DNA of 64,000 nt from Abditibacterium sp. GTDB lineage: Bacteria; Armatimonadota; Abditibacteriia; Abditibacteriales; Abditibacteriaceae. This document shows positions 1-59,895 of the stretch, piece by piece. The stretch's first letter is position 1, and each line of letters starts with the position of its first letter. Made by a program: the position numbers and the translations under genes. Under the pieces are notes generated by a model. That model searched no databases. It saw only the letters and a list, made by a program, of their open reading frames with translations, and was not told the DNA's origin. The DNA is taken from positions 2,176,001-2,240,000 of the forward strand of contig CBDASK010000003.1 of assembly GCA_965199495.1 (NCBI GenBank), read 5' to 3'.

Positions 1-374
1 CCAGCCACGCCGCGCGCGTGTTCGCGCGCTTTGGCCGTCAGGTGCTTATGAAAAACGTAAGACCAACCGAATTTCTCGGCTTCCGATTGGTAGTTCGTCG
101 CCGCGACAAACTGCGCCCACTGCGCAATCGTGACGGGCGCGATGCCGATTTCAAATGGTTCGACAAACGCGCGGCGCACTGGCCCTTCGGCGTCTTCGGG
201 GCGCGCGACGCCCTTGCGGTCTTCGCCCATCCAAAATTCGCCGCCGGATAAGGGTTTCAAGCCCAGATCGAATTCGGCGGGCGCGCGTTTCTCGGTCGAA
301 GCGGAGCCAGAGCAAGACGGCGTGGCTGCATCCGCGGGGCGGGCGGGCGCGCAACACGATTGGCGGGAATTCAT
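1..374 (-). CDS. Formylglycine-generating enzyme (SUMF1/FGE-sulfatase family), 5' part; runs off the window
   Basis: Not in the ORF track. Manual translation from ATG at 374: MNSRQSCCAP...GGEFWMGEDRKG...EDAEGPVRRAFVEPFEIGIAPVTIAQWAQFVAATNYQSEAEKFGWSYVFH, matching the FGE N-terminal pattern (F-x-M-G...E-x-P...V-T...F). Confidence 0.85.
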   Translation of the reverse strand, partial: MNSRQSCCAPARPADAATPSCSGSASTEKRAPAEFDLGLKPLSGGEFWMGEDRKGVARPEDAEGPVRRAFVEPFEIGIAPVTIAQWAQFVAATNYQSEAEKFGWSYVFHKHLTAKAREHARGVA

Positions 375-424
375 GCGTGGAAGTATCCGATATTTTGTTT
401 CGACAAAATGGCTCGGCTCAAGAT

Positions 425-932
425 TTAATCGAGCCACCATTCATAAAGATTGCCGGGATCGAAGAGAAAAATTAAAACCGAAATTATCGTCAGCCCGATG
501 AAAATGCGGCGCCAACTCAGGGGAAATTTGGGTTTGGCCGCGAAAAATAGCGCGATAAAAATAATCATCCACGCGCCGGAAAACGCGTCGAGATAATCAA
601 CGATGCGATAGAGCGCATCGTATAATGGCGTGGCCGAACCAATTTTTCGGATCGTCCGCCATCACTTGCGGCCAATGGCCGCTAAGATGTTGAAGTTCGC
701 GCGCCAAAAAGAGTAATCCCAAATTGGGTAAAATCGGCCACAAACTTAAAAGCGACATCAGCGCGATTAAACCCGGCGTCGCTTTCTTTTGTGGCGAGTG
801 GAACAGCAAACACGCGCCGCCAATTCCCACGATTAAGCTCACCAATGGCAGGAAATCTTGCCAGTCGGTGAAGTCGAAACTCAAGAATATCAGCAGCGGA
901 CGAAACAGCAGCAAAACAAGCGAGAACAACAT
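425..932 (-). pseudogene. Membrane protein, apparently frameshifted near 621-632
   Basis: ORF 597..932 is hydrophobic. A second frame continues LYDALYRIVDYLDAFSGAWMIIFIALFF...LYEWWLD* to a stop at 425-427. Confidence 0.5.
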
Positions 933-1089
933 CGGACGCTCAGCTTACGGGAAAATTTTCGGGGCGTCAAACGCGAAACGTCGGTTTCTTGGCGAATTTT
1001 ATATGGCGCGTCAGCGAGTCGGACGAGTTCAACCTGAGAAAACGGACAGCCCCAGAGAACTGGCGCGCCAATTGACGGTCTCAGCTTTT

Positions 1090-2055: not shown

Positions 2056-3027
2056 TTATGCGCCCGCGCTTTCGCTGGCCGTCGCGCGCGCGAAATCTTC
2101 GCCCGCGTGATAACTGCTGCGCACGAACGGGCCGCTCGCCACCATCTCAAAACCCATCGCTTCGCCGATGACGCGCAGTTCATCAAATTCGGCGGGCGGA
2201 ACATAGCGCGCGACCGGCAAATGGCGCGGCGTCGGGCGCAGATATTGGCCAATCGTGATGAAATCCACGCCGTTGGCTTTCAAATCTTTCAACACTTCGA
2301 CGACCTGTTCCTTGGTTTCGCCCAAGCCCAACATTAAGCCGCTTTTGGTTTTGATTGTCGCATCGAACTCTTTGACACGGCGCAAAAGTTCCAGACTGCG
2401 CTCGTATTTGGAGCCGGGGCGCACCCATTTATAAAGCGACGGCACGGTTTCGATGTTGTGATTATAAACATCGGGCCGCGTGGCAGCCACGGTGAGCAAG
2501 TCGTCCCATTTGCCGCGCCAATCGGGCGTGAGAATTTCGACTTTGGCGTCGGGCAATTCGGCGCGCACGCGCTCGATGGTTTCGACCCAGTGCGCCGCGC
2601 CGCCATCGGGCAAATCGTCGCGGTCAACCGACGTAATCACGACATACTTCAAGCCCAACTTCGCCGCCGAACGCGCGACGCGCGCGGGTTCAGATTCTTC
2701 CAAGGCTTCGGGTTTGGCGGTCGAGACGTTGCAAAATCCGCAGTTGCGCGTGCAGTGTTCGCCGCCGATCATGAAGGTCGCGGTTTTGTGGCTCCAACAT
2801 TCGCCGATGTTGGGACAGCGCGCCTCCTGACAAACCGTCACGATGTCGTCCTCGCGTAGCATCGCGTCGGTCGCGGCCATCTGGCGAAATTTGCCCGCTT
2901 TGGTTTTGAGCCAATCGGGGAGTTTTTCGGCGTTGGGCAAATCGCGGTGCGCGTTGTTGGCTCCGGCGCGCCACGCGGCGCGGGCTTGACTTCCGTCTTC
3001 CAGACTTTCCAGCGAAATAAGTTGCAT
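2056..3027 (-). CDS. lipA: Lipoyl synthase
   Basis: CQEARCPNIGEC, CTRNCGFC (radical SAM) and RSSY motifs. Confidence 0.97.
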   Translation of the reverse strand: MQLISLESLEDGSQARAAWRAGANNAHRDLPNAEKLPDWLKTKAGKFRQMAATDAMLREDDIVTVCQEARCPNIGECWSHKTATFMIGGEHCTRNCGFCNVSTAKPEALEESEPARVARSAAKLGLKYVVITSVDRDDLPDGGAAHWVETIERVRAELPDAKVEILTPDWRGKWDDLLTVAATRPDVYNHNIETVPSLYKWVRPGSKYERSLELLRRVKEFDATIKTKSGLMLGLGETKEQVVEVLKDLKANGVDFITIGQYLRPTPRHLPVARYVPPAEFDELRVIGEAMGFEMVASGPFVRSSYHAGEDFARATASESAGA

Positions 3028-3121
3028 TTGGTGCAAAGTCTAACGATTGGGCGGGCGCCGTGGCTGCATCGGCGCGCGGGCGAATTGGATAATGCTGTTT
3101 CGGTTGGAGAAGATCGCTGAG

Positions 3122-3315: not shown

Positions 3316-4083
3316 TCAACTCACTAACGTTTCCGCGCCATCAATCCAGATCGGCGAACCGGTGATATGCTCGGAATTAGAACTCGCCAAAAACAGTGCC
3401 AATTGCGCGACCTGATTGGAGACGCCTTCATTAAGCGGCGTGCGGCCTTTGGGATATTTCACCGGCAAACCGACTTCTTTCACGTCTTTGGCAATCGTCG
3501 AATCGTCAATTTGCGTGTCAATGGCGCCCGGACAAATCGCGTTGATGCGCACATTGTGCAGCGCGAACTCGACCGCCAACGATTTGACCAAAACGACTTG
3601 GCTGGCTTTGGTGCAGGAGTAAGCGATGCGCTCGCCTTTGAAAACGCGCGTGCCATTGACGCTGGATGTGACCAAAATGCTGCCGCCATTCTTCTTTAAG
3701 TGCGGAAAGGTATATTTCAGCGTCATGAAAGTGCCCTTTAAATTGATGTCAATCGTTTTAGAGAAATCTTCGTCCGATATTTCTTCGATGGGCGCCCACA
3801 CGCCGTTAATTCCGGCGTTGGCGAACACGATGTCAATGCCGCCAAACGCTTTGATCGTCGCAGCCACGGCGCGTTGAATGTCTTCGGATTTGGCAATATC
3901 GGCGTCAATGGCGATGGCCTGACCGCCGGTTTCGGTGATCTCGTCGGCGGTGCGCTGCACTTCTTCGAGCGTGCGGCTGATGCAGACGACTTTGGCGCCT
4001 TCCTGCGCGAATAGCAAGGCCGAGGCTTTGCCGATGCCCGAACCGGCGCCGGTGATGAACGCGACTTTATCGTGGAGTTGCAT
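3316..4083 (-). CDS. SDR family oxidoreductase
   Basis: TGAGSGIG, NAG and YSCTK motifs. Confidence 0.95.
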   Translation of the reverse strand: MQLHDKVAFITGAGSGIGKASALLFAQEGAKVVCISRTLEEVQRTADEITETGGQAIAIDADIAKSEDIQRAVAATIKAFGGIDIVFANAGINGVWAPIEEISDEDFSKTIDINLKGTFMTLKYTFPHLKKNGGSILVTSSVNGTRVFKGERIAYSCTKASQVVLVKSLAVEFALHNVRINAICPGAIDTQIDDSTIAKDVKEVGLPVKYPKGRTPLNEGVSNQVAQLALFLASSNSEHITGSPIWIDGAETLVS

Positions 4084-4119: not shown

Positions 4120-4869
4120 TTACGGCGTGCTGCGGTCGCGCACGATGTTGAGTTGCAAATCGTTCACATCCAAATTAGTATAGGGCGCGAATTCGGGCGA
4201 ACTTTGCGTGGTAAACGACGGGTCAACATCGAAACGTTGGTCGTTGGTTTCGTCCATGTTATCGGTGCGGCGCGTGGCAGCGATCTGAAAATCAATGATC
4301 GGCGTCGAGGCTGTGGCTGGGCCAAACGAATCAATCGGTTTAATGCGATTGTCTTGCGCCGAACGCAAAATCGTGGATGTGGTGACGAAGTTCAAATCCA
4401 AACGGTCGGGCGCCAAGTTCGCCGCGCTACGTGGCAAGAAGAACGTGCCGTTGCCCAGTCGCGCGTCCAAATCGAGCGTGAATTGGATGCCGTTTGTCGT
4501 GGCGCGTGGCTGCACAAAAAACGGCGAATCCAAAACCTGCCGTTCGGTCGCTGGGTCTTTCGGATCGGTGCGATAGAACACCTGAAACTGGTTGAGATGA
4601 TAAATCACCGCCAGCCGAAAATTGCCGCCGACGACGCCGTTGAGAACCGATGTGTTGCCCAGAATGGCGACCGGCCCGACGCCATCGCCGGTTTGGTCAT
4701 CGAAAGCCACGGCGTAGTAAAAATTGGGGTTAATCGGGCCGACCGTTGTCAGATTAACTTCGAGACGATTGGCCGAATTGGTCGTCGGGCCAGTTCCGCG
4801 CGGGTCGTTGGCACAGCCGGAAACGAGTAAAATCGCGGCGAGAGCGGCGAGAGAGAAGGTGAATTTCAT
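4120..4869 (-). CDS. Hypothetical lipoprotein
   Basis: Signal peptide with lipobox LVSGC; typical codon usage. Confidence 0.75.
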   Translation of the reverse strand: MKFTFSLAALAAILLVSGCANDPRGTGPTTNSANRLEVNLTTVGPINPNFYYAVAFDDQTGDGVGPVAILGNTSVLNGVVGGNFRLAVIYHLNQFQVFYRTDPKDPATERQVLDSPFFVQPRATTNGIQFTLDLDARLGNGTFFLPRSAANLAPDRLDLNFVTTSTILRSAQDNRIKPIDSFGPATASTPIIDFQIAATRRTDNMDETNDQRFDVDPSFTTQSSPEFAPYTNLDVNDLQLNIVRDRSTP

Positions 4870-5076: not shown

Positions 5077-5871
5077 TCAAACCTTGACCAACACCGCGAA
5101 ACTGCAATGCACGAGCGCGTGCGTGAAAAACGCGGGCACAAACGATTTCTCGCGCCAGCATAATATTCCCAAAACCAAGCCGCCGCCAAACGCGCTAATC
5201 ATTTCGGCTTGCGGTTTTCCCGTGTGCGCGAGGCCAAAACAGACCGCGCCGATGCCAATCGAGGCCCACGGCCCAAATCCCTGCGCCATGCCGAACAAGC
5301 CGAACCCGCGAAAAAACCATTCCCAGCAGAACATATAAATCGTCAGCGAAATTAGCAGCCACGCCCACTCGATGGCGTTGGTTGTCGGCGGCAAATAAGT
5401 CGCATAGGAATCGCGCACGTCGGGCATTCGCGAGAAATAAAAGATGAATGGCAGCATCACAACCCACAAAATTAACGCGATTTTGAGATGTTTGCGCCAA
5501 TCCGACCATCGCCAACCGTAATCCCACGCGTTATGTTTTTGGTCGCGGAGCCAATCTTGATGCACCAAGCCTTGGCCGAAAAGCATCCACACCATGCCGA
5601 GGGGCAACGCGAAATTAAATAAAACGCTGGTATAAACCCAGCGATTCCACTGCGGCCCAATGTCGCCGATGGGGCTGCGCCACTGCGCCCATGCGAGCAA
5701 ACCGCCGATAACCAAAACGCAGGCCGAGCGCAACCATCCGGTCGCGAACGTTTCGTCGTCTTCCCATGTCGCCGTTTCATCAACAAGCACATCGGGCGCG
5801 AGGATGTCGGCGGTTTTGTGCGCGGGGATTTCGGACAAATTTTCGGGCGAAGACGGATTATCGAAGGCCAT
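5077..5871 (-). CDS. CPBP/Abi family intramembrane metalloprotease
   Basis: WEWFFRG (variant of EExxFRG), FGLAH and THALVH motifs; multiple TM segments. Confidence 0.9.
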   Translation of the reverse strand: MAFDNPSSPENLSEIPAHKTADILAPDVLVDETATWEDDETFATGWLRSACVLVIGGLLAWAQWRSPIGDIGPQWNRWVYTSVLFNFALPLGMVWMLFGQGLVHQDWLRDQKHNAWDYGWRWSDWRKHLKIALILWVVMLPFIFYFSRMPDVRDSYATYLPPTTNAIEWAWLLISLTIYMFCWEWFFRGFGLFGMAQGFGPWASIGIGAVCFGLAHTGKPQAEMISAFGGGLVLGILCWREKSFVPAFFTHALVHCSFAVLVKV

Positions 5872-5957: not shown

Positions 5958-7148
5958 ATGTTATCGGAACGAATTAACCGCATTCAACCTTCGCCGACTT
6001 TAGCGGTTTCGGCCCGCGCCAAAGCGATGCGCGCGGCAGGAAAAGACGTTTTGTCGTTCGATGTCGGAGAACCCGATTTCGACACGCCCCAACACATCAA
6101 AGACGCGTGTATCGCGGCGCTGCAAAACGGCGATACCAAGTATACCGCCGCTCCCGGCACGCCCAAATTACGTCAGGCCATCGCTGACAAACTGGGGCGC
6201 GAAAACGGCTTGGAATACAGCTTCGATCAAATCGTGGTTTCGTGCGGCGGCAAGCATTCGCTGTTCAACATTTTTCAATCGGTGATTAATCCCGGCGACG
6301 AAGTTTTGATTCCGACGCCGTATTGGGTTTCGTATCCCGACCAAGTTTTGCTGGCGGGTGGCGTCCCGGTTTTTCTGCCAACGACGCAGGAAAGCGGCTT
6401 CAAAATCTCGCCCGCCCAATTGGAAGAATGTCTCCAAGAACATCCGGGCGCGCGCGCGTTCGTGATGAATTCGCCGTCGAATCCGAGCGGCGCGGTTTAT
6501 CCGCCCGACGAATTGAAAGCGCTGTGCGAAGTGTTGGACAAATATCCCGACGTTTTGGTGATAACCGACGAGATTTACGAACACATGGTTCACGCGCCCA
6601 ACACGCAATGGAGCATGGCGAAGTTTTCGCCCGAATTCCAAAAGCGTTGCGTCATTGTGCAGGGCGTTTCAAAAACGTATTCGATGACTGGCTGGCGCAT
6701 CGGCTGGACGGCTTCGACTGGGGAACTCGCCAAAGCGATGGGCAAACTGCAATCGCAAAGCACCTCGAACCCGACGAGTTTCGCGCAGGCGGGCGCCGTG
6801 GCTGCTCTTGAGGGGCCGCTACCGACCGAAATGCTGGAAACGTTTCATCGTCGTAGCGGCATTATGCGCGAACTGTTGAAAGATGTGCCCGGCTTTGAAG
6901 TACCCAAACCCGAAGGCGCGTTTTATCTGTTCCCCAAAGTTTCGGGCGTCTTCGGGAAAATGGTCGCCGGTGGGAAACAGATCAATTCGGCGCAGAATTT
7001 GACCGATTACCTGCTGGAAACGGCGGGCGTCGCGTGCGTGCCGGGCGAAGGTTTTGGCGCCCCCGAACACGTTCGATTTTCGTATGCGGCTTCGCTCGAA
7101 GACATCAAAGCGGGCGTCAATCGTATTTTGCAAGTGTTGCCGGAATAA
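5958..7148 (+). CDS. Aspartate aminotransferase (class I/II PLP aminotransferase)
   Basis: GEPDF, NSPSNPSG, DEIY and SKTYSMTGWRIG motifs. Confidence 0.95.
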   Translation: MLSERINRIQPSPTLAVSARAKAMRAAGKDVLSFDVGEPDFDTPQHIKDACIAALQNGDTKYTAAPGTPKLRQAIADKLGRENGLEYSFDQIVVSCGGKHSLFNIFQSVINPGDEVLIPTPYWVSYPDQVLLAGGVPVFLPTTQESGFKISPAQLEECLQEHPGARAFVMNSPSNPSGAVYPPDELKALCEVLDKYPDVLVITDEIYEHMVHAPNTQWSMAKFSPEFQKRCVIVQGVSKTYSMTGWRIGWTASTGELAKAMGKLQSQSTSNPTSFAQAGAVAALEGPLPTEMLETFHRRSGIMRELLKDVPGFEVPKPEGAFYLFPKVSGVFGKMVAGGKQINSAQNLTDYLLETAGVACVPGEGFGAPEHVRFSYAASLEDIKAGVNRILQVLPE

Positions 7149-7276: not shown

Positions 7277-8410
7277 ATGAGCGATAAAAAACCGTCTGGA
7301 TTGGAAGATGTCGTCGTAGCGCAATCGTCAATTTGCTATATTGATGGCCAACGCGGGCAACTGGTGTATCGGGGCTACGATATTGACGATCTCGTCGAAA
7401 ACGCCTCGTTCGAGGAAGTCGCGTGGCTTTTGTGGCACGGCGATTTGCCCACACAAACCGAGTTGGACGGCCTCAAAACCGACCTCGCTCATTCGATGAT
7501 CTTGCCGCAGCATTTGCTCGATTTGCTGCACACCTTGCCGTTCGATGCCAACCCGATGCGCGTTTTGGCGATTGGCGCCGCCGCGATGGGCACGCTCGAT
7601 CCCGCCGCCGATGACATGAGCGGCCCAGCCAACAACGCCAAAGCCGTGCGATTGACCGCGCAGTTGCCGCTGATTATGAACGCGTGGCATCGCATCAGTT
7701 CGGACATGGAGCCAATTGCGCCCGACGTGACCAAATCGCTCGCCTACAACATGCTTTATTGCATGAACGGCGAAGTGCCCGATCCGTATGCTGTTGAGAC
7801 GATGGACGCCGCGCTGATTTTGCACGCCGACCACGAACTCAACGCCTCGACATTTTCGGCGCGCGTGACGGCAGCCACGTTGTCCGACTTGCATTCGGCA
7901 GTTGTCAGTGCGATTAACACGCTCAAAGGCCCGCTTCATGGCGGCGCCAACGAAGCTGTAATGAAAATGCTCGAAGAGATCGGCGAGGTCAGCCACGCCG
8001 CCGACTATGTCGAAAACGCGGTGGCGAACAAAAAGAAAATCATGGGATTTGGCCATCGCGTTTACAAGGCCAAAGACCCGCGCGCCGTGATTTTGGAGCG
8101 CATGAGCGAAGAGTTGGGCAAACGCGCGAACAACACCAAATGGTTCGAGATGACGCACGCCGTCGAAGAGGCGTTTCAGCCCAAAGTCGCCGCGAAACAG
8201 TTGTTTCCCAACGTGGACTTTTACAGCGCCTCGGCGTATCAGGTCATGGGCATTCCGCACAGTTTGTTCACGCCGATTTTCGCCTGCTCGCGCGTCGTCG
8301 GCTGGACGGCGCACTTGCTCGAACAATACGCCAACAATCGCTTGTTCCGTCCGTCGAGCGATTACATCGGCGCAACTGGACGCAAATACGCGCCGATTGG
8401 CGAGCGGTAG
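7277..8410 (+). CDS. Citrate synthase (short type) or 2-methylcitrate synthase
   Basis: HADHELNAST, GPLHGGAN, GFGHRVY and FPNVDFYS motifs. Confidence 0.95.
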   Translation: MSDKKPSGLEDVVVAQSSICYIDGQRGQLVYRGYDIDDLVENASFEEVAWLLWHGDLPTQTELDGLKTDLAHSMILPQHLLDLLHTLPFDANPMRVLAIGAAAMGTLDPAADDMSGPANNAKAVRLTAQLPLIMNAWHRISSDMEPIAPDVTKSLAYNMLYCMNGEVPDPYAVETMDAALILHADHELNASTFSARVTAATLSDLHSAVVSAINTLKGPLHGGANEAVMKMLEEIGEVSHAADYVENAVANKKKIMGFGHRVYKAKDPRAVILERMSEELGKRANNTKWFEMTHAVEEAFQPKVAAKQLFPNVDFYSASAYQVMGIPHSLFTPIFACSRVVGWTAHLLEQYANNRLFRPSSDYIGATGRKYAPIGER

Positions 8411-9309: not shown

Positions 9310-10590
9310 ATGGCCATTCTCGAAAAAGACAACACCGCGCGCCCTCATGTCGTCATTATTGGCGGCGGATTCGGCGGACTTTACGCGGCGCGCACGCTCG
9401 CCAAACATCCGGTTGACATCACGATTATTGATCGCGACAATTATCATCTGTTTCAGCCGCTTTTGTATCAAGTTGCGACTGCCGCGCTTTCGACGGGCGA
9501 CATCGCGTCGCCGATTCGCTCGATTCTGCGCAAGTTCAAAAACGTGCGCTGCATCATGGCCGAAGTCACCGACATTGACCTCGACGGCAACCGCATCATG
9601 ACGCGCGATGGCGATTATCATTACGATTATCTCATCAACGCGGCGGGCGCGACCAAAACTTATTTTGGCCACGACGAATGGGAAAAATATGCGCCCAGCC
9701 TCAAAACGATGTCGGACGCGCTGGAAATTCGGCGGCGGATTTTCTGCGCCTACGAAACCGCCGAGCGTTTGCCCGAAGAATCGGACGAGCGCGATGCGTA
9801 TCTCACCTTCATTTGTATCGGCGGCGGCCCGACCGGCGTGGAGATGGCCGGTTCGATTGTCGAGGTTGCCACGCAAACTTTGAAGGCGGATTTTCGTTCG
9901 ATTGACCCGCGCAAAACGCGGGTGATTTTGCTGCAATCGGGCGACCGCATTTTGCCGGAATATCCCAAAGATTTGTGCGATAGCGCGCGGCGACAGTTGT
10001 TGGAATTGGGTGTCGAAGTGCGCACTCATTCGCGCGTGACTGACATCACCAAAGACGGCGTTTACTGCGGCGAAACCTTTATTCCGTGCAAAACCGTGGT
10101 GTGGACGGCGGGCGTGGCGGCCTCACCCATCGGCGCCAAAATGGGCGCCCCAACCGACAAAGGCGGACGCGTCGTCGTCAACGCCGATATGAGCGTGCCC
10201 GGCCATCCCAATGCCTTTGTTATCGGCGATTTGGCCAGTTTCAACCACGGGCCAAAAGGACAATTACCCGGCATCGCGCCCGTCGCGATTCAGATGGGCG
10301 TCGCCGTGGCTCGTAACATCGTCGCCGAAGTTGACGGCCAGCCAATGAAAGATTTCGACTATTTCGACAAAGGCCAAATCGCGACCATCGGGCGCAACTC
10401 GGCGGTCGGCCTGCTGTTTGGCGTTCACGCCAAAGGCTTCATTGCGTGGCTGATGTGGCTGTTGATTCACATCTACTTTCTCGTTGGCTTCGAGAACCGA
10501 GCCTTCGTGATGTTCAACTGGATTTACTCGTATTTGTCGTATAACCGCTCGGCGCGCTTGATTACCGATGTCGGGCATCCGAGCGATTGA
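9310..10590 (+). CDS. ndh: Type II NADH dehydrogenase
   Basis: GGGFGG, HLFQPLLYQVAT, GGGPTGVE and IGD motifs. Confidence 0.93.
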   Translation: MAILEKDNTARPHVVIIGGGFGGLYAARTLAKHPVDITIIDRDNYHLFQPLLYQVATAALSTGDIASPIRSILRKFKNVRCIMAEVTDIDLDGNRIMTRDGDYHYDYLINAAGATKTYFGHDEWEKYAPSLKTMSDALEIRRRIFCAYETAERLPEESDERDAYLTFICIGGGPTGVEMAGSIVEVATQTLKADFRSIDPRKTRVILLQSGDRILPEYPKDLCDSARRQLLELGVEVRTHSRVTDITKDGVYCGETFIPCKTVVWTAGVAASPIGAKMGAPTDKGGRVVVNADMSVPGHPNAFVIGDLASFNHGPKGQLPGIAPVAIQMGVAVARNIVAEVDGQPMKDFDYFDKGQIATIGRNSAVGLLFGVHAKGFIAWLMWLLIHIYFLVGFENRAFVMFNWIYSYLSYNRSARLITDVGHPSD

Positions 10591-10645: not shown

Positions 10646-11095
10646 TTAGCGCAAATCGCTCGGTTTCAATCCCAAAACATTGAGCGGCACGTCGGGATGT
10701 TTGTGTGCCCAGTCTATTTCGATGACATCGCCATGATAAGCCCATTCGACGACGTGCCATTTGCCGTTGACCAAATGCAACAGCGCCGAAAAATCCAGCT
10801 GCATTTCGGTTTCCATCGGGCGACCTTTGGAATCCACTACTTCACAGCTTAAATGCGCCCAACCGCCGCCCACGCGAAAATCGCGAACATCGGTGAAAGT
10901 CGGGCGCCTGCCGTGATACGATTTTTGCACCGGCACGCGCAAAGCGTTCATAATCGCGCTGCGTTCGACGCTCCCCGGCTTAGGCGTATGAACCGCGACA
11001 TTCGCGGGCCGCGCATAGGCAATTTGCGCCGTAAAAAGCGCAGGCGCCGATGCAGCCACGCCCAACAAAACCAGCGAAAGTTTGAGTTGTTTCAT
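10646..11095 (-). CDS. Secreted hypothetical protein
   Basis: Signal peptide; GGAGG SD upstream. Confidence 0.75.
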   Translation of the reverse strand: MKQLKLSLVLLGVAASAPALFTAQIAYARPANVAVHTPKPGSVERSAIMNALRVPVQKSYHGRRPTFTDVRDFRVGGGWAHLSCEVVDSKGRPMETEMQLDFSALLHLVNGKWHVVEWAYHGDVIEIDWAHKHPDVPLNVLGLKPSDLR

Positions 11096-11543: not shown

Positions 11544-11642
11544 GTTCGCGCGCAGTGTGCAGCCACGGCGCGCGCTCATCCAACACTTGAGTGCGCGAAT
11601 AACGGCACGCGCTATCGAATTGACATGGTTTACTCGAAAAAA

Positions 11643-21468: not shown

Positions 21469-21471
21469 AAC

Positions 21472-24410: not shown

Positions 24411-24693
24411 TTGAGAAAATGAAGTATTCCACTTTCGACCAGCCACGCCGACCCATCGCGCCCGCACAACTCTTCCCTGTCAACACGCAAAAACTTATCC
24501 ATATCAGGGAAAACCCCTGCCGAAAAATAAATTTTTACCAGTGGCCCGCGTTATCTCACAAAAGAAAATCAAAGGGTCTCGTGCCATTTGCAGCGGCAGC
24601 ACCGACACTCAATTTCATAATCGAGTGCCCGCCGTAGCGTCGTGGCGCTTTAAATTAGAAAGAGTGTGCGCAGGGGAAAAGCGGAACAGATGG

Positions 24694-51509: not shown

Positions 51510-53609
51510 ATGAATTCCCGTTACGTTCGGCCCACCGTTTTTCTCTGTGGAGCGTTGTTGGTCGGCGCGCAATCGGCGCCCTTTGTTCGCGCGCAAGCTC
51601 TTCCTGTTAATGCGCCGACGGGCGCGGATTTGGCCAGCCGCATGAGTGGCGATTTGCGCGCGCGTTTGGAAAAAGGCACCGATTTGCTCAACGAGGGCGA
51701 TGCGAGCAGTGCGGGCGAACTGCGCGACATCGCGCAAAGCGCGTTGAAGACGTTGCAAAGCACCACCAAAACCGATGTTTTGAGCGCCAAACCCGGCAGT
51801 TTGCCGGGCGATGCCGTCACCGCCGGGCTGGCCGAACAGACCGCGCGCGCCCACTATCTGTGGGGCGTGGCTGCCACGCGCTTCGCGAAACGCGACGAAG
51901 CGATTACAGCGCTGGCGCGCGCGCGCCGTTTGGTTGGTGCCTCGGCGGGCGCCGACCAAAACAGCACTTTGCTGCGCGACATCAACCTCGAACTGAACAA
52001 AGTTTTGGGCGACGGCTTGCCCTTGATTGCGCCGACCGATGTTTTGGCCGACATCGCGCAATTGGTTCACGGCGATTCGTGGACGCCGCGCTCGTTCGAG
52101 TTTGCCGAAAGAAATCAGGCAATCGGCGGCCCTTCCGTTCAAAGTGCGGATGGCGAACAATTGTTGGTGACCGACGGCCAGCTTTTCCCGCCGCCTTTGC
52201 CCGGCGCGAACGACATCGCGCCGCGCACACCCGCGCTTTATAGTTCGCTCGATGCCACACAGTTGCCCGCTTCGCTCAAACTCAACAAAATGGTCGCCGG
52301 TTATGCGCGCCAAGCGGATGGCCCCAACCAAGGCCAATGGCGCCAAGTCGTGCGCGTTTTTTACGCCTCGGAGCGCCTGACGCAAGAAAAGCGTGCCGAC
52401 TTGCCGCGCGCGCGCGCTTTGGCCGAACAATTCCTCAAAGTTCACCAATATTACGAGAATGAACTGGGTCTTTCCAACTTGTATGCGCAGGGCGACCGCG
52501 ACGCTGGCGTGACAACTTTGTGGCTGCTGGAAGTTTCGGCGTTGTGGCCGCAAGACGATAAAGACCCGCGCGTTCTGGCGCAATTGGGGCCGCTGATGCC
52601 CTCGGTTAACACCGGCAAAACCACGCTCAACTCCGCGCCCGAAACCACAGCGCTGATGCGTCCGTGGACGCCGATTGCGGGCAACGTGGACAGCGCGCCC
52701 GGCGAAATCCTGTTTTGGAAAGCCGGATTGGAGCGCCCCGAAGCCGAGTGGCTGCGCGAGCTGTTCCACGAATACGGTCACGTCGCGCTGCCGCCCATCG
52801 GCGGTTTTCGCCCGCCGCTCGAAGCCTACGCCAACGGCTTCATGGGCGAAACGCTGGGCATGATGTGGGCCGCCCAATCGCCCGCCGAATTCGCGCTGTG
52901 GGTGCAGGATAACTCGGCCCTGTCGGATTTCGCGCCGCGTGCCATCGCAACAGCAGCTACGGCGAACGCTGCGATTAAAACCGACGCGATGCAAACCGAT
53001 TTGCGCGCGGGTTTCGCCGAGCATCTGCAAACTCACGCCATTCCCGCGCGCGCGTTGTTCGTGGCCAACGGCCCCAACTCGCCCATCGCCGAAGCGGGCG
53101 ATGAGCGCGCCTTGCTTTACGTCAGCGGCCTCGCCGTGATGCTGGAGCGCGTTTATGGTGCGCCCATGCTGGGCCGCGCGTTCCAGCCGTTGGCCCAAAG
53201 CGCCAGCCAAACGGTGGGCGCCGCCGCCCGCCGTGGCTTGTTGCGTCCGGGCAACTTATTTAGTTCCATCGAAACAACATGGCAATCGCCGTGGCAAGCC
53301 GATAAAACGTTGCCGATTTGGTTGCCGGGCGCGATGAACGTCAAATTAGAAGCGCAAACTTTGGTCAATCGCGGCGCGGTTACTTTGCCCAAAGGCGCGC
53401 GCGCTAACGTCTGGCTGTGGGTGCCGCCGGGCACCGCCGAACTGCGCATCGAAGGCAAAGGCGCCGGAAATTTGAGCGCCTTGGGCACGCCCTTCGCCGC
53501 CAAAGGCGACTTGGCGCGCGTTTATTTCGCGGGTAATGGCTGGCAGAAATTTACTCTGGTCGCGCAAGATAACGCGACAATTAGCGCGTCGAAGTTTTTG
53601 CGCAAGTAA
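51510..53609 (+). CDS. Secreted protein with HEXXH zinc-metallopeptidase motif
   Basis: Signal peptide; helical TPR-like N-region; LFHEYGH followed by LEAYANG (gluzincin-like). Confidence 0.75.
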   Translation: MNSRYVRPTVFLCGALLVGAQSAPFVRAQALPVNAPTGADLASRMSGDLRARLEKGTDLLNEGDASSAGELRDIAQSALKTLQSTTKTDVLSAKPGSLPGDAVTAGLAEQTARAHYLWGVAATRFAKRDEAITALARARRLVGASAGADQNSTLLRDINLELNKVLGDGLPLIAPTDVLADIAQLVHGDSWTPRSFEFAERNQAIGGPSVQSADGEQLLVTDGQLFPPPLPGANDIAPRTPALYSSLDATQLPASLKLNKMVAGYARQADGPNQGQWRQVVRVFYASERLTQEKRADLPRARALAEQFLKVHQYYENELGLSNLYAQGDRDAGVTTLWLLEVSALWPQDDKDPRVLAQLGPLMPSVNTGKTTLNSAPETTALMRPWTPIAGNVDSAPGEILFWKAGLERPEAEWLRELFHEYGHVALPPIGGFRPPLEAYANGFMGETLGMMWAAQSPAEFALWVQDNSALSDFAPRAIATAATANAAIKTDAMQTDLRAGFAEHLQTHAIPARALFVANGPNSPIAEAGDERALLYVSGLAVMLERVYGAPMLGRAFQPLAQSASQTVGAAARRGLLRPGNLFSSIETTWQSPWQADKTLPIWLPGAMNVKLEAQTLVNRGAVTLPKGARANVWLWVPPGTAELRIEGKGAGNLSALGTPFAAKGDLARVYFAGNGWQKFTLVAQDNATISASKFLRK

Positions 53610-54086: not shown

Positions 54087-55034
54087 TTAATCCGCGCGCA
54101 AAACGTTGATTGTGGCGACGACGCTTTCGCCCAGCGCATCCAAATTGTAACCGCCTTCCAAAATTGCGACTAACTTGCCGTCGCACAACTCGTCGGCCCA
54201 ATTTTTCGTAGCGGCGACCAAATCGGCGAAATCGGCGGCTTCAAGCTGCATCGAAGCCAGTGGGTCTTGCGCGTGCGCATCGAAGCCCGCCGAAAGCAGA
54301 ATCAGTTGCGGCTGGAAAGCGCGCACCTGTCCGCCGACCTGTTGCCAGATTTGCCGGTAGATTTCGCCGTCGCTACCCGGCGAGAGCGGATAATTGATCG
54401 TCGCGCCTTCGCCCGCTCTGCTGCCGGTTTCGCCGCGCGAACCGGTGCTGGGAAAGAGCGGCGATTGGTGCAGCGACACGAAAAGCACGCTTGGATCGTC
54501 ATAAAAGATTTGCTGCGTGCCGTTGCCGTGATGCACATCGAAATCGAGAATCGCCACGCGTTCGATATTGGCTTCGCTTTGCGCCCAACGAGCAGCCACG
54601 GCGATGTGATCGAACAGGCAAAAGCCCCACGGCGAATCGGAATCGGCGCCGCTTTCGGCGTGATGGCCGGGCGGACGCGCCGCCACAAACGCGTTGTCGA
54701 ACTCGCCATTCAGCACCGCGCGCGTCGCGGCGATGGCGGCGCCGCTCGCCAGTTTCGCGACTTCAAACGAATGCGGCCCCACGTTCGTATCGCCGTCGAG
54801 CCAACCGTCGCCCGCGCGCGCCAGCTCTTTGACGCGCTCGATGTGCATCCGCGTGTGGCAGCGCGCCAAGTCGTTTTCGCTCGCGCTCTCGAACGTCGGA
54901 TGCGCCAATTCGTCCCACAAACCGGCTTCGCGCAGAGCGGAGTTGATGGCTTCCAAACGCTCCGGGCGTTCGGGATGGCCCGCGCCGTTGAAGTGCAGCG
55001 CGAAATCGGGATGCGTGTAAAATGCGGTCTTCAT
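54087..55034 (-). CDS. Histone deacetylase family protein
   Basis: HPERPER, RPPGHHA, DFDVHHGNGTQ, SAGFDAH and LEGGY motifs. Confidence 0.95.
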   Translation of the reverse strand: MKTAFYTHPDFALHFNGAGHPERPERLEAINSALREAGLWDELAHPTFESASENDLARCHTRMHIERVKELARAGDGWLDGDTNVGPHSFEVAKLASGAAIAATRAVLNGEFDNAFVAARPPGHHAESGADSDSPWGFCLFDHIAVAARWAQSEANIERVAILDFDVHHGNGTQQIFYDDPSVLFVSLHQSPLFPSTGSRGETGSRAGEGATINYPLSPGSDGEIYRQIWQQVGGQVRAFQPQLILLSAGFDAHAQDPLASMQLEAADFADLVAATKNWADELCDGKLVAILEGGYNLDALGESVVATINVLRAD

Positions 55035-55051: not shown

Positions 55052-55270
55052 GTTTAAAGAGGGCGAATTTTTGAGGCACTGGTGGCCCCCTCCCCAGCCC
55101 TCCCCCGTTCCGGGAGAGGGAGCTACTTGCAAGAGAGTAAAAATCACTCTAACTAACTTTGAACAAAGTTGAACGAACATTATAATTTTCTCGAATGTGC
55201 TCCCTCTCCCGGAACGGGGGAGGACTGGGGAGGGGGCCACCAGTGCCTCAAAAATTCGCCCTCTTTAAAC
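55052..55270. repeat. Paired inverted element, CCCTCTCCC family (about 70-bp arms)
   Basis: GTTTAAAGAGGGCGAATTTTTGAGGCACTGGTGGCCCCCTCCCCAG...GGGAGAGGGAGC and a near-exact reverse complement. Confidence 0.9.
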
Positions 55271-56336: not shown

Positions 56337-57200
56337 TTAAAACGGTTGTTCGTCCAACGGCTGCGTTTGGGCGGCTTCGTCCCACAATTGCAACTCTTCG
56401 TCGCTCATTTCCCAGCCGTGTTGCGGTTCGGGAAATGAGCGCGTTTGCACTTGCGTGACATAGGCGCCAATCGCTTCATTCCACAGATGCGCGGTGTCAA
56501 CAAAACTTTTGGCGAAACGAAAATTACGCGGCGTCAAACCCATCGCGTCGTTCCACACCAAAATTTGGCCGTCGCAACTCGCGCCCGCGCCAATTCCAAT
56601 TGTCGCAATCGTCGCGGCGCCGGTAATGCGCGCCGCGACAACCGTCGTCATCGCTTCCAAAACAAGGGCAAACGCGCCGCGATTTTCGATCCACTGCGCT
56701 TGCTCCAACAACTGCGCGCCCTCCATCGCGGTGCGGCCCTGCACGACGTTATCGAATTTTAACACCGATTGCGGCGTGAAGCCGATGTGTCCCATGACCG
56801 GCACGCCGATTTCGCTCAATTTCTCGAAAACTCCGGCGGGCGTGCCCTCGACTTTGACGGCGTGCGCGCCCGCTTGTAGCAACCTTACCGCGCCCGTGGC
56901 TGCTAATTCGGGCGTGGCCGCGCTGCCAAAGGGCATATCGGCGATGATAGCCACGTCGGGTCGTTGCGACGCGCGCACGCCGCGCGCGACGGCGCCCGTA
57001 TGAAGCGCGATGTCGTCGAGCGTGACCGGCAACGTCGAATCGTAACCGAGCAGAGTATTGCCCATCGAGTCGCCGACCAAAATCGCGTCGAGTCCGGCGT
57101 TGCAAGCGATGCGCGCGCTGGGCGCGTCGTAGAGCGCGAGCATGGACAGGGGAACGGAATCGCGTTTCTTGCGCGCGAAAATTTGCAGCGGTGATAACAT
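56337..57200 (-). CDS. panB: 3-methyl-2-oxobutanoate hydroxymethyltransferase
   Basis: LVGDSMG, ADMPF, VKVEG, GHIGFTPQ and IGIGAG..CDGQILV motifs. Confidence 0.96.
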   Translation of the reverse strand: MLSPLQIFARKKRDSVPLSMLALYDAPSARIACNAGLDAILVGDSMGNTLLGYDSTLPVTLDDIALHTGAVARGVRASQRPDVAIIADMPFGSAATPELAATGAVRLLQAGAHAVKVEGTPAGVFEKLSEIGVPVMGHIGFTPQSVLKFDNVVQGRTAMEGAQLLEQAQWIENRGAFALVLEAMTTVVAARITGAATIATIGIGAGASCDGQILVWNDAMGLTPRNFRFAKSFVDTAHLWNEAIGAYVTQVQTRSFPEPQHGWEMSDEELQLWDEAAQTQPLDEQPF

Positions 57201-57337
57201 GAAGCGCCACGCAGTTTAACGCGCGTAGGCCAAGAGGCCCGACAAATTTTGCGGCTCGATAATCAATCGATCTTGGAAAACTACGGCAAAACTGAATTGA
57301 TGAATGAGACTATTGAAGACAAAATTTATCAAATATT

Positions 57338-58297
57338 TCACAAACCAATGCGAAACGCATGGATGACGCGGCCCCAAAAACTGGAGTTTTCGGTTGCGGT
57401 GAGCGGTTGCGATTGCGCTTCGGCGTGATTCAAGGGCGAACGCTCTTGCATCGTGTAAGAGTAGGGATCGTGAGGATGGAGCGCGTTCAATTTGCGGCGC
57501 ACTGCCGCGTTGCCGGGTTGCAGAGCCAGCGCTTGCTCCCACATCGGAAAGGCGCGGTCTTCGCGGCCCAACTGAAGATAAAAATCGCCCAGCAGTTCGC
57601 GGGCGGGCACGTTGCGAAAATCAACGCGCAACACGTCGTGGCAAATCGCGATGGCTTCGCTCGTGCGGCCTTCCCGATGGAACAGGCGCGCGGCCTCGGA
57701 CAATTGGCGGCGGGCCGACGGAGTGGCACTGCGCTTTTTGTCTTCGCGCCGCATCCGGCGCAATTGGGCGCGCTCCTGACGGCTCGTTTTCTTCTCCTGC
57801 GCCGTCAGATGCTTGCGCGTTGGTCGCGTCCAAATCTGTTGGGCGCGCTCGCGACGATCTCGCTCCAACGCTTGCTGCTCCATTCGCTTCAACTGGTGCG
57901 CTCGTTGTTCGGGCGTGAGCGGCGGCGTGGCTCTTTGCTTCGTCGCTTTGGTTTTTGTTCCCTTGCGCTGCGCCTGCGCTCTCAAAACATCGCTCATATG
58001 CGCCTGCTGCCCGCGCGCGGCTTGCGCCTGTATCTGTGCGCGCAGTGCCTCTTGCTGGCGTCGCGCGAATTCGATCTGCTCGATTTGCAGGCGCGCATCG
58101 AGAACGGCGCGCCGCTCGGCATCGCTCACGATATGCCACGCCCAGTTGATTTTTACCATGCGCTCGCTCGCCAATGCGCGCGCGGCCTCATCGGGCGCGC
58201 AGTCGGGATGATGAACGCGCACCAAACGACGATAGGAAGCCCGAATCTTCGCCAACTCGGCGTTCGCTGGCACTTCCAAAACGTGGTAAGGGTTCAT
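57338..58297 (-). CDS. J-domain protein with C-terminal TPRs
   Basis: NPYHVLEV...HHPD J-domain; TPR-like LLGDFYLQLG...ALALQP. Confidence 0.85.
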   Translation of the reverse strand: MNPYHVLEVPANAELAKIRASYRRLVRVHHPDCAPDEAARALASERMVKINWAWHIVSDAERRAVLDARLQIEQIEFARRQQEALRAQIQAQAARGQQAHMSDVLRAQAQRKGTKTKATKQRATPPLTPEQRAHQLKRMEQQALERDRRERAQQIWTRPTRKHLTAQEKKTSRQERAQLRRMRREDKKRSATPSARRQLSEAARLFHREGRTSEAIAICHDVLRVDFRNVPARELLGDFYLQLGREDRAFPMWEQALALQPGNAAVRRKLNALHPHDPYSYTMQERSPLNHAEAQSQPLTATENSSFWGRVIHAFRIGL

Positions 58298-58416
58298 GGG
58301 AAAAGGATGAAATTGGGGCTTTTCTCAAAGGTCTATTTTAGCAGGGCTTGCGTTTTCTTCCAATCGGTTATTTTCTTCGTTTCCCGATTGGACGCGATGT
58401 GGACTGTGCGCAAAGT

Positions 58417-59895
58417 TTATTGTTTCATTAGATCGTCCAACTGGCGTCCGTAATCGCCCACGACACCCATCGCCAGCGAGCCGACGTAGAGGGCGACGCA
58501 CAAAAACGCGATGATTCCCAAAACGGGAACCGCCTGTTTTATCGTGGTTTCGGCGTTAGTTTCCAGGAAATCGGCGGCTTTATCGAGTTGCGTATCCAAG
58601 TCGCCGCTTTCCTCGCCGATGCGCATCATCTGCAAGGCGAGCGGATTGAAAACGCGCGTTTCCTTCATGCACTGCGTCAGGGGGGCGCCCGCGTTGAGTT
58701 GAGGAATCGTGGCGAGTGCGCGCTCAGCCACGGCGCGGTTGCCGCAGGCTTGCGCGCCCAATCGCACGGCTTCGCTTGGCCCGACGCCCGCGCTATAAAG
58801 CGCGCCCAGCGCGCGGCAAAACTTCGCCGAAGCCAACGCGCGCGCGGTTTTGCCGACGATGGGCACCAGCAATTTGATTTCGTCGTAAGTTTTGGCGGGC
58901 GAAAAACCGCCGACTTTGTAATCGTTAATGCGCGAGGTAAACGCCGGTTTGACATAGTGCCAAACTTTGATCGCGATGTAAAGCAGCGCGAGGACGATAA
59001 GGGGCGGCAAGACTTGGCGCAAAAACGCTTGAAAACCGACCAGCACCCAAGGCACGACGCCGGGAATCAAAATCGAGCAAAAAACGATGAGTTTGGGATA
59101 CCATGTTTCGCGTTTGATGGCCTGTTGCAACTGGTAATCTCGCTCGGCGTAGTCGGCCAATCGGGTAAACGAACGCTCCAAAAATCCGCCGCGCTCGCCC
59201 GCTCTGGTGATGCCGATCATGAGCGGGCTGAACAGGCCGGGAAACGCTTCCATGCTTTCCGAAACCGGCCCGCCGGTCAGCGCGCGCCGCGACATTTCCA
59301 CGCTCGCCGTGCGCAGACTGTTGTTGGCCGCGTTTTCCGACATCGTTTGCAACGCGCCGCCGATGCCCGTGCCCGCGTGCATCAGCGCGGCGAGTTGGCG
59401 AAAAAAGTTGGATAAATCTTGAGCGGACGCGTGCAAAAACGGCTGATTGACAAGGGGCGCCGCCGCCGATTGTCCCATCGGTCGCGCAGAGTTCGGATGC
59501 GTCATCGGATGCGCGGGCGGAGCGGGCGCCGCCGTGACCGGATCGAAGCGCGGCGCCGGGTGGAGCGGTTTATGGATGTTCAACGGCGCGCCACTGACCG
59601 GATTGGCCGCCGAATTTATCGGTGGCCCGGTCGGCGTGGCTGCTCTTTCGACGTTGATACTTTCGGCGGGCGAATTTAATGTCGCAACGCCGCCGTTTTG
59701 CGCCGAATTATTAATCGGTGCGCGCGGGCGCAACGGCGCGGCACTTTGGGCGCGCGCCGTGCGCGCTTCGAGCCGGTTGATGAAAAGCCCTTCCGCGCGC
59801 AACGCGTCGAGCGCCGAACTGCGGTCGGCGGCATCGCGGGTGCCGCGCACAATGCGCCCATCAACGGTGCGCGCTTCGTAATTCCAAGTCGCCAT
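58417..59895 (-). CDS. pilC: Type IV pilus / T2SS platform protein (PilC/GspF)
   Basis: FFRQLAALMHAG, AGERGG, FCRALGALYSAG and IGEESGDLD motifs; long Pro/Ala linker. Confidence 0.85.
   Translation of the reverse strand: MATWNYEARTVDGRIVRGTRDAADRSSALDALRAEGLFINRLEARTARAQSAAPLRPRAPINNSAQNGGVATLNSPAESINVERAATPTGPPINSAANPVSGAPLNIHKPLHPAPRFDPVTAAPAPPAHPMTHPNSARPMGQSAAAPLVNQPFLHASAQDLSNFFRQLAALMHAGTGIGGALQTMSENAANNSLRTASVEMSRRALTGGPVSESMEAFPGLFSPLMIGITRAGERGGFLERSFTRLADYAERDYQLQQAIKRETWYPKLIVFCSILIPGVVPWVLVGFQAFLRQVLPPLIVLALLYIAIKVWHYVKPAFTSRINDYKVGGFSPAKTYDEIKLLVPIVGKTARALASAKFCRALGALYSAGVGPSEAVRLGAQACGNRAVAERALATIPQLNAGAPLTQCMKETRVFNPLALQMMRIGEESGDLDTQLDKAADFLETNAETTIKQAVPVLGIIAFLCVALYVGSLAMGVVGDYGRQLDDLMKQ

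Follow-up and report, generated by a model that had tools for sequence, protein, structure and literature searches.

Why does one short, non-palindromic DNA word recur on both strands of a bacterial chromosome, mostly inside genes? The question was raised by a stretch of 64,000 nucleotides from an Abditibacterium species (Armatimonadota), hereafter the window, which corresponds to positions 2176001-2240000 of contig C3 in genome G000 (4.81 Mb, three contigs, C1-C3). The word was followed as the core 8-mer CAGCCACG, the 9-mer GCAGCCACG, the 11-mer CAGCCACGSCG and the full 13-letter form WGCAGCCACGBCG. The window contains 29 exact copies of the 9-mer, 14 on the forward and 15 on the reverse strand, and the chance expectation is 0.73 (standard deviation 0.84, largest 3; 100 dinucleotide-preserving shuffles). 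Judged from the genome sequences, there is an even chance that this is an independently evolved, putative uptake or self-recognition word of the DNA uptake sequence (DUS) and uptake signal sequence (USS) type, also called DNA uptake enhancing sequences (DUES), which would be kept by biased uptake and recombination.

The original prediction, made from the letters of the window, had listed 29 positions with about one expected, and every position proved exact. It had also mentioned many near matches, which were borne out by 45 core 8-mers in the window, 29 of them present as the 9-mer and 25 as the 11-mer. As it stated, no copy was found in the restriction-modification genes (11698-13543) or in the gene at 19.0-19.5 kb. 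Of the two sites that it had placed between genes, 3059 is intergenic and 11559 is uncertain, lying inside a called 165-aa open reading frame (ORF), 11149-11646(-).

On C3, the 4.72-Mb chromosome, 1,780 9-mers (917 forward, 863 reverse), 1,691 11-mers and 3,083 core 8-mers were counted, compared with 296 copies of the reversed control word. The 9-mer occurs once on C1 (24.7 kb) and twice on C2 (64.6 kb). Alignment of 4,533 AGCCACG sites placed the information within about 13 positions, with no extended conserved flanks, and the consensus W-G-C-A-G-C-C-A-C-G-B-C-G was derived from the counts of every single-letter variant of the 13-mer. Single-mismatch variants at core positions have 0-8 copies, against 349 for the consensus 13-mer. 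About half of the genes (1,929 of 3,739) carry at least one core copy.

A signal at the DNA level

Gene calls on C3 were crude (3,739 genes, 86% of the contig) and agreed in the window with Pfam matches except at one locus. Relative to these calls, the 1,691 11-mers comprise 801 sense, 778-779 antisense and 106 intergenic copies, with 6 straddling gene boundaries. Shuffling synonymous codons within genes gave 18.6 (standard deviation 4.5) sense and 23.8 (standard deviation 4.6) antisense 11-mers (20 shuffles), and shuffling codon order left 4.7 and 13.4, respectively (10 shuffles). A dicodon-preserving shuffle had been named in the original prediction as a decisive check. A first-order codon (dicodon) model conditioned on the protein yielded 38.4 sense and 62.4 antisense copies (10 resamplings), against 801 and 779 observed, so that the enrichment survives it; having the real genes as its training set makes the model a conservative null. 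The enrichment amounts to 12- to 43-fold after protein-, codon-usage- or dicodon-preserving shuffles, and the word is a DNA-level signal. A signal in RNA was ruled out, the sense and antisense copies being equal in number.

In each orientation a single reading frame dominates, holding 595 of the 801 sense and 638 of the 778 antisense copies. It reads GCA GCC ACG GCG (AATA) in the sense orientation and xxC GCC GTG GCT Gxx (AVA) in the antisense orientation. The original prediction had remarked that GCA looked uncommon elsewhere; GCA is indeed the rarest Ala codon (6.3%), yet 283 of 370 AATA peptides are written with the word, compared with 1.7 expected. Similarly, 638 of 1,586 AVA peptides are coded GCC GTG GCT, compared with 19 expected. 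The peptides themselves are enriched in the proteome, with 370 AATA against 145, 87 and 135 for its permutations and 398 AVAA against 177, 170 and 91, which makes both two to four times commoner than their own permutations.

The Ala-rich frames (AATA, AVA), found in a CpG-rich and Ala-rich genome, could point to a mere by-product of protein composition and codon or dicodon bias, with Ala-rich peptides and no DNA reader behind the word. The probability of this explanation is negligible, given that the enrichment outlives the protein, codon and dicodon shuffles, that the antisense strand is equally enriched, that the word uses the rarest Ala codon and that it is absent from 24 related genomes. 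A coding artefact was excluded by the codon and dicodon shuffles together with these 24 motif-free relatives.

Related genomes, dialects and site conservation

Among 27 genomes of the family, the core 8-mer CAGCCACG is enriched about 10-fold in three: G000 (3,091 copies), G011 (2,676) and G004 (3,503). The remaining 24 contain 131-529 copies, near the reversed control word (118-458). Genomes other than G000 were otherwise sampled at 200-520 kb each, and kin are not independent of one another. In alignable DNA of these samples, identity to G000 is 85% for G011, 80% for G004 and 70-72% for G012, G009, G010, G006 and G002. The three carriers are thus the closest kin, in keeping with a single origin. 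An unbiased k-mer scan (200-400 kb per genome) recovered the same word in G011 and a different word, cgACACCAGCCACGTCCtacg, in G004, sharing the core. In the five other congeners (70-72% identity) the scan returned no comparable word, the top words being CRISPR-like and low-copy repeats.

The word therefore occurs as two dialects with a common core, WGCAGCCACGBCG in G000 and G011 and the longer ACASCAGCCACGTCC in G004, where single coding copies carry AcA[G/C]CAGCCACGTCc. The G000-type 11-mer has 231 copies in G004, against 0-21 in motif-free congeners, and the G004-type 15-mer has only 3 copies in G000.

Within a 216-kb alignment of G000 and G011, 56 of 87 aligned 11-mers (64%) are identical, compared with 23% of phase-matched control windows, and the mean number of mismatches is 0.77 at word sites and 1.70 in the controls. 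The non-identical counterparts in G011 are mostly silent one-letter variants such as CGGCCACGGCG, which indicates that the word arises and decays by point substitution in place and not by insertion. In G004, G000 sites are no better conserved than controls (13.2% vs 13.4%), and in seven cases the counterpart has the G004 ending. When G000 and G011 were compared for signs of recent exchange, no 300-nt window reached 96% identity, and identity was the same with and without the word (0.853 and 0.850), a result that is uninformative about recombination.

Inverted pairs and hairpins

The original prediction had not seen the word in pairs. This observation did not extend beyond the window: C3 contains 98 inverted pairs within 60 nt, mostly inside genes, against 6 direct pairs, and in the 480 kb sampled from G004, 145 of 363 core sites stand in inverted pairs at most 100 nt apart. 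These 76 pairs are largely convergent (69), with a spacing of 33 nt in 33 of them. Paired sites in G004 are intergenic in 110 of 145 cases, and single sites are coding in 194 of 218. The pairs form long GC-rich hairpins in which only an arm of about 20 nt is conserved; beyond it, each locus has its own loop and its own inner and outer stem extensions, which are nevertheless complementary. For 54 pairs the spacer could be classed as tandem (29), convergent (11) or divergent (14), against 204, 55 and 56 for all spacers. When the hairpins were compared with G000 spacers, syntenic flanks were found for 22 of 64 (21 flanked, 1 spanned), in spacers too diverged to align. Terminator hairpins formed by paired words are reported for known uptake sequences in the available text of PMC2397512.

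These doublets resemble those of repetitive extragenic palindromic (REP) sequences, and they raise the alternative of a mobile hairpin, similar to REP/REPIN elements or to miniature inverted-repeat transposable elements (MITEs), spread by a transposase of the RAYT type (Y1) with the word as its conserved arm. The number of pairs, their modal spacing, their GC-rich stems and their intergenic location agree with such an element, as does their presence in all kinds of spacer, divergent ones included. Genes for Y1 transposases are present, and G000 and G004 both possess other intergenic palindromic repeat families. However, the copies in G000 are 94% single, in frame and inside genes, with orthologous sites that differ by silent point changes, and G004 itself holds 194 single coding copies of its dialect. 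A conserved arm of about 20 nt with locus-specific stems and loops also speaks against a mobile unit. Y1 transposases were found in all five genomes tested, motif-free ones included, and none is flanked by the word or by clusters of it; RAYT/REP was rejected on this basis. A mobile hairpin fits only the G004 hairpins and is very improbable as an account of the word.

Other long palindromic repeat families, unrelated to the word, were observed in intergenic regions of G000 (for example, opposite L103 and L113). GTCTCTAC / TAGAGACACC and TCATTCTGAG are enriched in these palindromes, and hairpins of 60-100 nt are visible.

Distribution over strands and mobile DNA

The 11-mer is balanced between the strands of C3 (852 forward, 839 reverse) and in each 200-kb and 400-kb bin, and sense copies equal antisense copies. 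GC skew and gene-strand bias are almost absent in G000, and the replichores, origin and terminus cannot be located by composition. The strand-skew check named in the original prediction thus returned no local skew in any bin of a genome whose replichores are themselves not detectable.

Core and acquired DNA were contrasted as C3 against the small contigs and the largest gaps. Core density is 0.653 per kb on C3, 0.081 on C1 and 0.093 on C2, about 7-fold lower on the small contigs. C2 encodes a terminase, a head protease, a major head protein, a 2,400-aa tape measure protein, a tail protein and RecT, and is a tailed-phage genome. C1 carries an anti-restriction gene, its other proteins being unmatched. 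The largest motif-free gaps on C3 include 1.119-1.179 Mb and 1.205-1.225 Mb, which encode three large serine recombinases, a type I restriction subunit, a KAP NTPase, and giant NACHT-like and unnamed proteins. Further gaps coincide with a Cas1/CRISPR locus (2.765-2.778 Mb) and a glycosyltransferase cluster of 44% GC (1.350-1.362 Mb). The word marks native as opposed to foreign DNA in these genomes and could help to make the organisms genetically tractable.

Two of these regions deserve a separate description. C3:1119000-1225000 (about 100 kb) is word-poor and partly low in GC; it includes a type I restriction R subunit, a 2,121-aa NACHT-like protein and three large proteins without a Pfam match (1,118, 409 and 1,556 aa), and probably represents stacked integrative or defence elements. 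At C3:2764871-2777636, cas1 has a large CRISPR array at its side, one repeat word of which has 131 copies on one strand. Long CRISPR arrays were also observed in the G004 and G006 samples.

Spacing and orientation

Random placement of the core copies on C3 would leave 860 gaps below 500 nt; 634 were counted, so that the copies are over-dispersed at short range. The islands produce an excess of very long gaps. When each strand is taken separately, the deficit becomes pronounced (68 and 69 gaps below 500 nt, against 237 and 228 expected). Pairs in the same and in the opposite orientation number, respectively, 2 and 77 at 0-30 nt, 10 and 61 at 30-100 nt, 29 and 89 at 100-200 nt, 59 and 183 at 200-400 nt, 215 and 418 at 400-800 nt, 693 and 883 at 800-1,600 nt, and 1,699 and 1,671 at 1,600-3,200 nt. 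In 200 shuffles of the orientation labels with positions fixed, the same-orientation counts never came near those observed below 800 nt; for 200-400 nt, the null was 121 ± 7.7 with a minimum of 101, against 59. Opposite-orientation pairs are near random (about 200 for 200-400 nt, computed by hand from density), except for an excess below 30 nt. Copies in the same orientation therefore avoid one another within about 1 kb, and copies in opposite orientation do not. The G011 sample exhibits the same pattern, with 2 same- and 16 opposite-orientation pairs at 200-400 nt.

This asymmetry suggests a strand-specific reader: avoidance in the same orientation without avoidance in the opposite one points to reading of one strand or in one direction. 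An orientation-blind receptor, as described for Haemophilus influenzae in the available text of PMC1939737, does not predict it. No mention of orientation-specific spacing was found in the literature on uptake sequences, as far as the available texts go.

Orientation-specific spacing also keeps a Chi-like signal as the main rival. According to this explanation, the word would act on single-stranded DNA and be read by a translocating helicase-nuclease, which would pass from degradation to recombination or spare self DNA, each orientation serving one direction of travel. Avoidance over about 1 kb is what a directional reader acting at the first properly oriented site would leave, and the absence of the word from phage and islands agrees with it. 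Chi sites, which are 5-8 nt long, co-oriented with replication and read by RecBCD or AddAB, share with the word their over-representation, non-palindromic form, species-specific variants, under-representation in foreign DNA and orientation-dependent action. On the other hand, the word has 11-15 informative positions and displays no orientation skew in any bin.

The original prediction had also offered a protein-binding or methylation site. In this explanation the word has nothing to do with uptake: it would be a mark kept by a sequence-specific repair or gene-conversion drive, or would be bound by a nucleoid or segregation protein. A methyltransferase might, for instance, recognise a non-palindromic target, with mismatches corrected in favour of the word, a mechanism discussed for the cyanobacterial HIP1. 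One-letter variants at background level suggest an efficient restoring force, silent-site changes create the word, and its clade restriction and drifted specificity would also be accommodated. However, a drive that acts site by site predicts no spacing rule, contrary to the over-dispersion and the same-orientation avoidance over about 1 kb, and nucleoid, segregation or replication sites are usually intergenic or skewed, unlike a word that is 94% coding and unskewed. This explanation covers the sharp specificity and not the spacing, and we consider a repair or methylation drive, or a nucleoid protein, improbable. A Vsr-type endonuclease as the agent of repair was rejected, as it is not common to the three carriers and is clear only in G004, on a small contig.

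Uptake machinery and candidate readers

The genes expected for DNA uptake are present. ComEC was detected in all 27 family genomes (in G000 as an 859-aa protein with DUF4131, Competence and Lactamase_B domains), as were secretin domains (8 matches in G000). DprA and a ComEA-type protein (SLBB and HHH_3) were found in the five genomes tested, the G012 copies looking truncated. In motif-free G012 (7.4 Mb), the ComEC match (1341240-1341905 of its contig C1) lies in a 558-aa frame, against about 860 aa elsewhere, and the HHH_3 match of ComEA (C1:2735017-2735154) lies in a 62-aa frame; the copies of motif-free G009 are intact. This suggests a possible decay of the uptake genes in G012.

Concerning a Chi-like reader, RecC was found in none of the 27 family genomes, with the E. 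coli control detected. PDDEXK_1 gave two matches in G000, a 299-aa open frame and a 1,421-aa fusion protein, neither of AddAB- or AdnAB-like architecture. The fusion protein (C3:4111365-4117038) combines an N-terminal PD-(D/E)XK nuclease with an SF1 (AAA_11/AAA_12) helicase and adjoins a bacterial topoisomerase IB. Within the genus it occurs only in the three carriers G000, G004 (86% identity) and G011, as a Chi-like reader might, although a gene restricted to one clade among kin is not independent evidence. It was rejected as the reader: the G011 copy is frameshifted, with the first ~680 residues missing in the stretch examined, in a genome that keeps its full motif load, and homologues with 42-45% identity exist in two motif-free genomes of other genera. 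The Chi-like alternative of the original prediction is weakened by these results, together with the length of the word and the lack of skew, and we regard it as unlikely, if still the main rival.

Candidates for a pilin receptor were also considered. Eleven were retrieved by regular expression, but prepilin-like genes number 43-127 per genome, and the two-gene cluster that was traced has orthologues in motif-free species; no receptor candidate stood out. A fast-evolving two-gene pilin-like cluster (618 and 316 aa) was observed at C3:868592-871395, the larger protein being 57% identical in G011. By comparison, MutS is about 91% identical to that of L001, its closest named neighbour, which was taken to be G011 or something close to it.

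Comparison with known systems and proposed mechanism

Uptake sequences are known in two families only, Neisseriaceae and Pasteurellaceae, according to the available part of bioRxiv 10.1101/2025.10.24.684340. The portions available of the other sources describe them as evenly spaced without orientation bias, with orientation-independent uptake in H. influenzae (PMC1939737); as enriched in the core genome, absent from acquired genes, highly conserved and spaced similarly to conversion tracts (PMC2397512); as biased in reading frame, with encoded peptides about doubled in the proteome (PMC2817400); and, in Neisseriaceae, as occurring in dialects (PMC3630211). The same portion of PMC2817400 reports that DUES are under-represented in coding sequence and that their frames correlate with preferred codons.

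The word resembles DUS, which are read in Neisseriaceae by the minor pilin ComP, in its thousands of strand-balanced, non-palindromic copies of 10-13 nt, its core-genome bias, its absence from acquired DNA, its conservation above the flanks and its kilobase spacing. Dialects with a shared inner core, frame bias with peptide enrichment, and intergenic hairpin pairs (in G004) complete the likeness. However, the sequences are unrelated, the word lacks the CTG core and its host belongs to Armatimonadota; about 35% of DUS lie in ORFs, against 94% of word copies in coding DNA, and no ComP-type receptor was found for the word. Inner cores are CTG in DUS dialects and GCGG in USS types. With the core CAGCCACG and a host in Abditibacteriales, as judged by the named neighbours of its MutS, and not a proteobacterium, the word belongs to neither sequence family.

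USS of Pasteurellaceae (Hin and Apl types) are similar to the word in their coding majority, preferred frames, about doubled peptides, even spacing without orientation bias, two dialects with a shared core and accumulation by molecular drive, as far as the available texts of PMC2817400 and PMC1939737 describe them. Uptake of USS is orientation-independent in these accounts, whereas the spacing of the word depends on orientation. USS also have AT-rich flanking tracts and are said to occur in many one-mismatch copies; those of the word are at background level. HIP1 of cyanobacteria, a palindrome linked to a methyltransferase target, is likewise a hyper-abundant, lineage-specific short word inside genes; the word differs in being non-palindromic and in following a spacing rule. 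REP/REPIN-RAYT systems differ in turn: most word copies stand alone, lie in frame and owe their origin to point substitution, 94% of those in G000 being coding singles, and Y1 transposases, which motif-free genomes also possess, have no flanking copies of the word.

In G000 and its two sister genomes, most of the computational hallmarks of an uptake sequence were observed, in agreement with the uptake reading of the original prediction: copy number, strand balance, survival of the shuffles, absence from mobile DNA, conservation above the flanks, a lineage dialect, frame bias, peptide enrichment and the presence of uptake machinery. The departures are the coding enrichment, the rare codon, the very few one-letter variants and the orientation-specific spacing, the last of which does not fit an orientation-blind uptake receptor. 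Several points weigh against the uptake reading. Coding DNA contains 94% of the 11-mers with a coding fraction of 86%, and intergenic copies make up 6.3% in 13.6% of the sequence, so that the under-representation in coding DNA reported for DUES was not observed. The preferred frame uses the rarest Ala codon, and DUES frames are reported to follow preferred codons. Avoidance is confined to the same orientation (88 same- against 272 opposite-orientation pairs at 100-400 nt). The absence of replichore skew refers to local balance alone, replichore structure being undetectable in G000. The hairpins of G004 are not clearly terminators, with 14 of 54 in divergent spacers and, by a crude test, a T-run on at least one side in 36 of 54. 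The 24 motif-free genomes possess the uptake genes to the same extent, so that these do not discriminate, and no receptor candidate was obtained among the 43-127 prepilin-like genes per genome, the two that were traced having motif-free orthologues. Finally, the literature search found no paper on uptake, transformation or competence in Armatimonadota. It also returned no novel or putative uptake sequence of this kind and, among the matches listed, no paper on genome words in Abditibacterium.

Should the word be an uptake signal, the following scheme can be proposed. It would have arisen in the common ancestor of the three Abditibacterium species, and a sequence-specific reader would favour word-bearing DNA in natural transformation. 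Point mutations, chiefly silent ones, would create the word in some alleles, these alleles would be taken up and recombined more often, and the word would build up by such molecular drive to about one copy every 1.5 kb in long-resident DNA, staying out of phage and recent islands. The specificity of the reader may have drifted between WGCAGCCACGBCG in G000/G011 and ACASCAGCCACGTCC in G004 around the shared core CAGCCACG. Reading might be confined to one strand or to one direction, perhaps once the DNA becomes single-stranded or later, and each strand would then carry its own series of tags. In this more specific form, the word would belong to a third, independently evolved system of uptake self-recognition and the first outside Proteobacteria. 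The system would be strand-specific, with tags about every 3 kb per strand, acting on single-stranded or directionally threaded DNA rather than through an orientation-blind surface receptor, and its specificity would change between sister species. We put this version forward tentatively, as possible rather than probable.

If true, this would be the first self-DNA tag outside Neisseriaceae and Pasteurellaceae, and it would point to natural transformation in Armatimonadota. Recognition of self DNA during transformation may be either a rare oddity or a solution reached repeatedly; a clean, young case in so distant and little-studied a phylum, shared by three species in two dialects, would show the latter. 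The old dialect, still visible at 231 copies in G004, offers a natural experiment on the co-evolution of word and reader, and the orientation-specific spacing rule hints, in a way that can be tested, at the stage where reading takes place.

Copies and neighbouring genes in the window

The copies of the word in the window are listed in Table 1.

Table 1. Word copies and the motif-free gene pair in the window.
Feature	Position	Strand	Context
Core 8-mer	2..9	+	window edge
9-mer, also 11-mer core (ATGCAGCCACGCCG)	321..329	-	sense, (-) gene running off window start
9-mer	2483..2491	+	antisense, radical-SAM/lipoyl synthase-like gene 2056-3036(-)
9-mer + 11-mer	3059..3067	-	intergenic
9-mer + 11-mer	3860..3868	+	antisense, short-chain dehydrogenase gene 3316-4083(-)
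9-mer	4505..4513	-	sense, 4120-4869(-), no Pfam match
9-mer	5355..5363	+	antisense, CAAX-protease-like gene 5077-5871(-)
9-mer + 11-mer	6797..6805	-	antisense, aminotransferase gene 5937-7148(+)
9-mer	7871..7879	+	sense, citrate synthase gene 7277-8410(+)
Core 8-mer CAGCCACG, 11-mer form	7990..7997	+	sense, citrate synthase gene 7277-8410(+)
Core 8-mer only	10445..10452	-	antisense, NDH-2-like gene 9211-10590(+)
9-mer	11052..11060	+	antisense, 10646-11095(-)
9-mer + 11-mer	11559..11567	+	uncertain ORF 11149-11646(-), or intergenic
Motif-free restriction-modification pair (MjaI-like endonuclease; N4/N6 methylase with SNase domain)	11698..13543	-	probably acquired genes
Core 8-mer only	13707..13714	-	sense, mutS 13549-16359(-)
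Core 8-mer, 11-mer form	15159..15166	+	antisense, mutS
9-mer	15871..15879	-	sense, mutS
Core 8-mer only	15993..16000	+	antisense, mutS
9-mer + 11-mer	16985..16993	+	sense, GH15 glucodextranase gene 16538-18961(+)
9-mer + 11-mer	21838..21846	-	sense, Helicase_C_3/WYL gene 21472-24354(-)
9-mer	21932..21940	+	antisense, 21472-24354(-); 94 nt from opposite-orientation site 21838
9-mer + 11-mer	23638..23646	-	sense, 21472-24354(-)
Core 8-mer, 11-mer form	24440..24447	+	intergenic, upstream of dnaB
Core 8-mer, 11-mer form	26920..26927	-	sense, ppx/gppA gene 26405-27937(-)
9-mer	29589..29597	-	antisense, purD 29143-30420(+)
9-mer + 11-mer	30322..30330	+	sense, purD
9-mer + 11-mer	30998..31006	+	sense, purS-containing ORF 30566-31315(+)
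9-mer + 11-mer	32482..32490	-	antisense, EVE-domain gene 32243-32710(+)
Core 8-mer only	32986..32993	-	antisense, purL 32801-35059(+)
Core 8-mer, 11-mer form	34234..34241	-	antisense, purL
9-mer + 11-mer	35247..35255	-	antisense, small ORF 35149-35460(+)
Core 8-mer only	35283..35290	-	small ORF 35149-35460(+)
9-mer + 11-mer	36121..36129	+	sense, SLH-domain surface protein gene 35632-37584(+)
Core 8-mer only	38719..38726	-	sense, PMT_2 glycosyltransferase gene 38628-40415(-)
Core 8-mer, 11-mer form	39917..39924	+	antisense, 38628-40415(-)
9-mer	41720..41728	-	antisense, BadF/BcrAD-type ATPase gene 41397-42326(+)
9-mer + 11-mer	45765..45773	-	sense, aminotransferase gene 45687-46958(-)
Core 8-mer only	47478..47485	+	antisense, Zn-dehydrogenase gene 47089-48114(-)
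9-mer	48444..48452	+	antisense, PolX gene 48182-49834(-)
9-mer + 11-mer	49265..49273	+	antisense, PolX gene
9-mer	51866..51874	-	antisense, 51465-53609(+), no Pfam match
9-mer + 11-mer	54592..54600	+	antisense, deacetylase gene 54087-55079(-)
9-mer	56895..56903	-	sense, panB 56337-57200(-)
Core 8-mer, 11-mer form	58725..58732	+	antisense, PilC-like T2SSF gene 58417-59895(-)
9-mer + 11-mer	59635..59643	-	sense, PilC-like gene
Core 8-mer, 11-mer form	63210..63217	+	antisense, corA 63203-64216(-)

The MjaI-type endonuclease gene adjoins the gene for the N4/N6 methylase, whose C-terminal domain is similar to staphylococcal nuclease, and the pair lies between mutS and small unnamed ORFs. At 19630-24354(-), an XPB/ERCC3-type helicase (568 aa) is followed by a 960-aa Helicase_C_3/Tfb2-like/WYL protein, forming a bacterial XPB partner pair. 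Furthermore, CpG-rich words (CGCGCGCG and relatives) are strongly in excess in G000, even though its GC content is only 55.7%.

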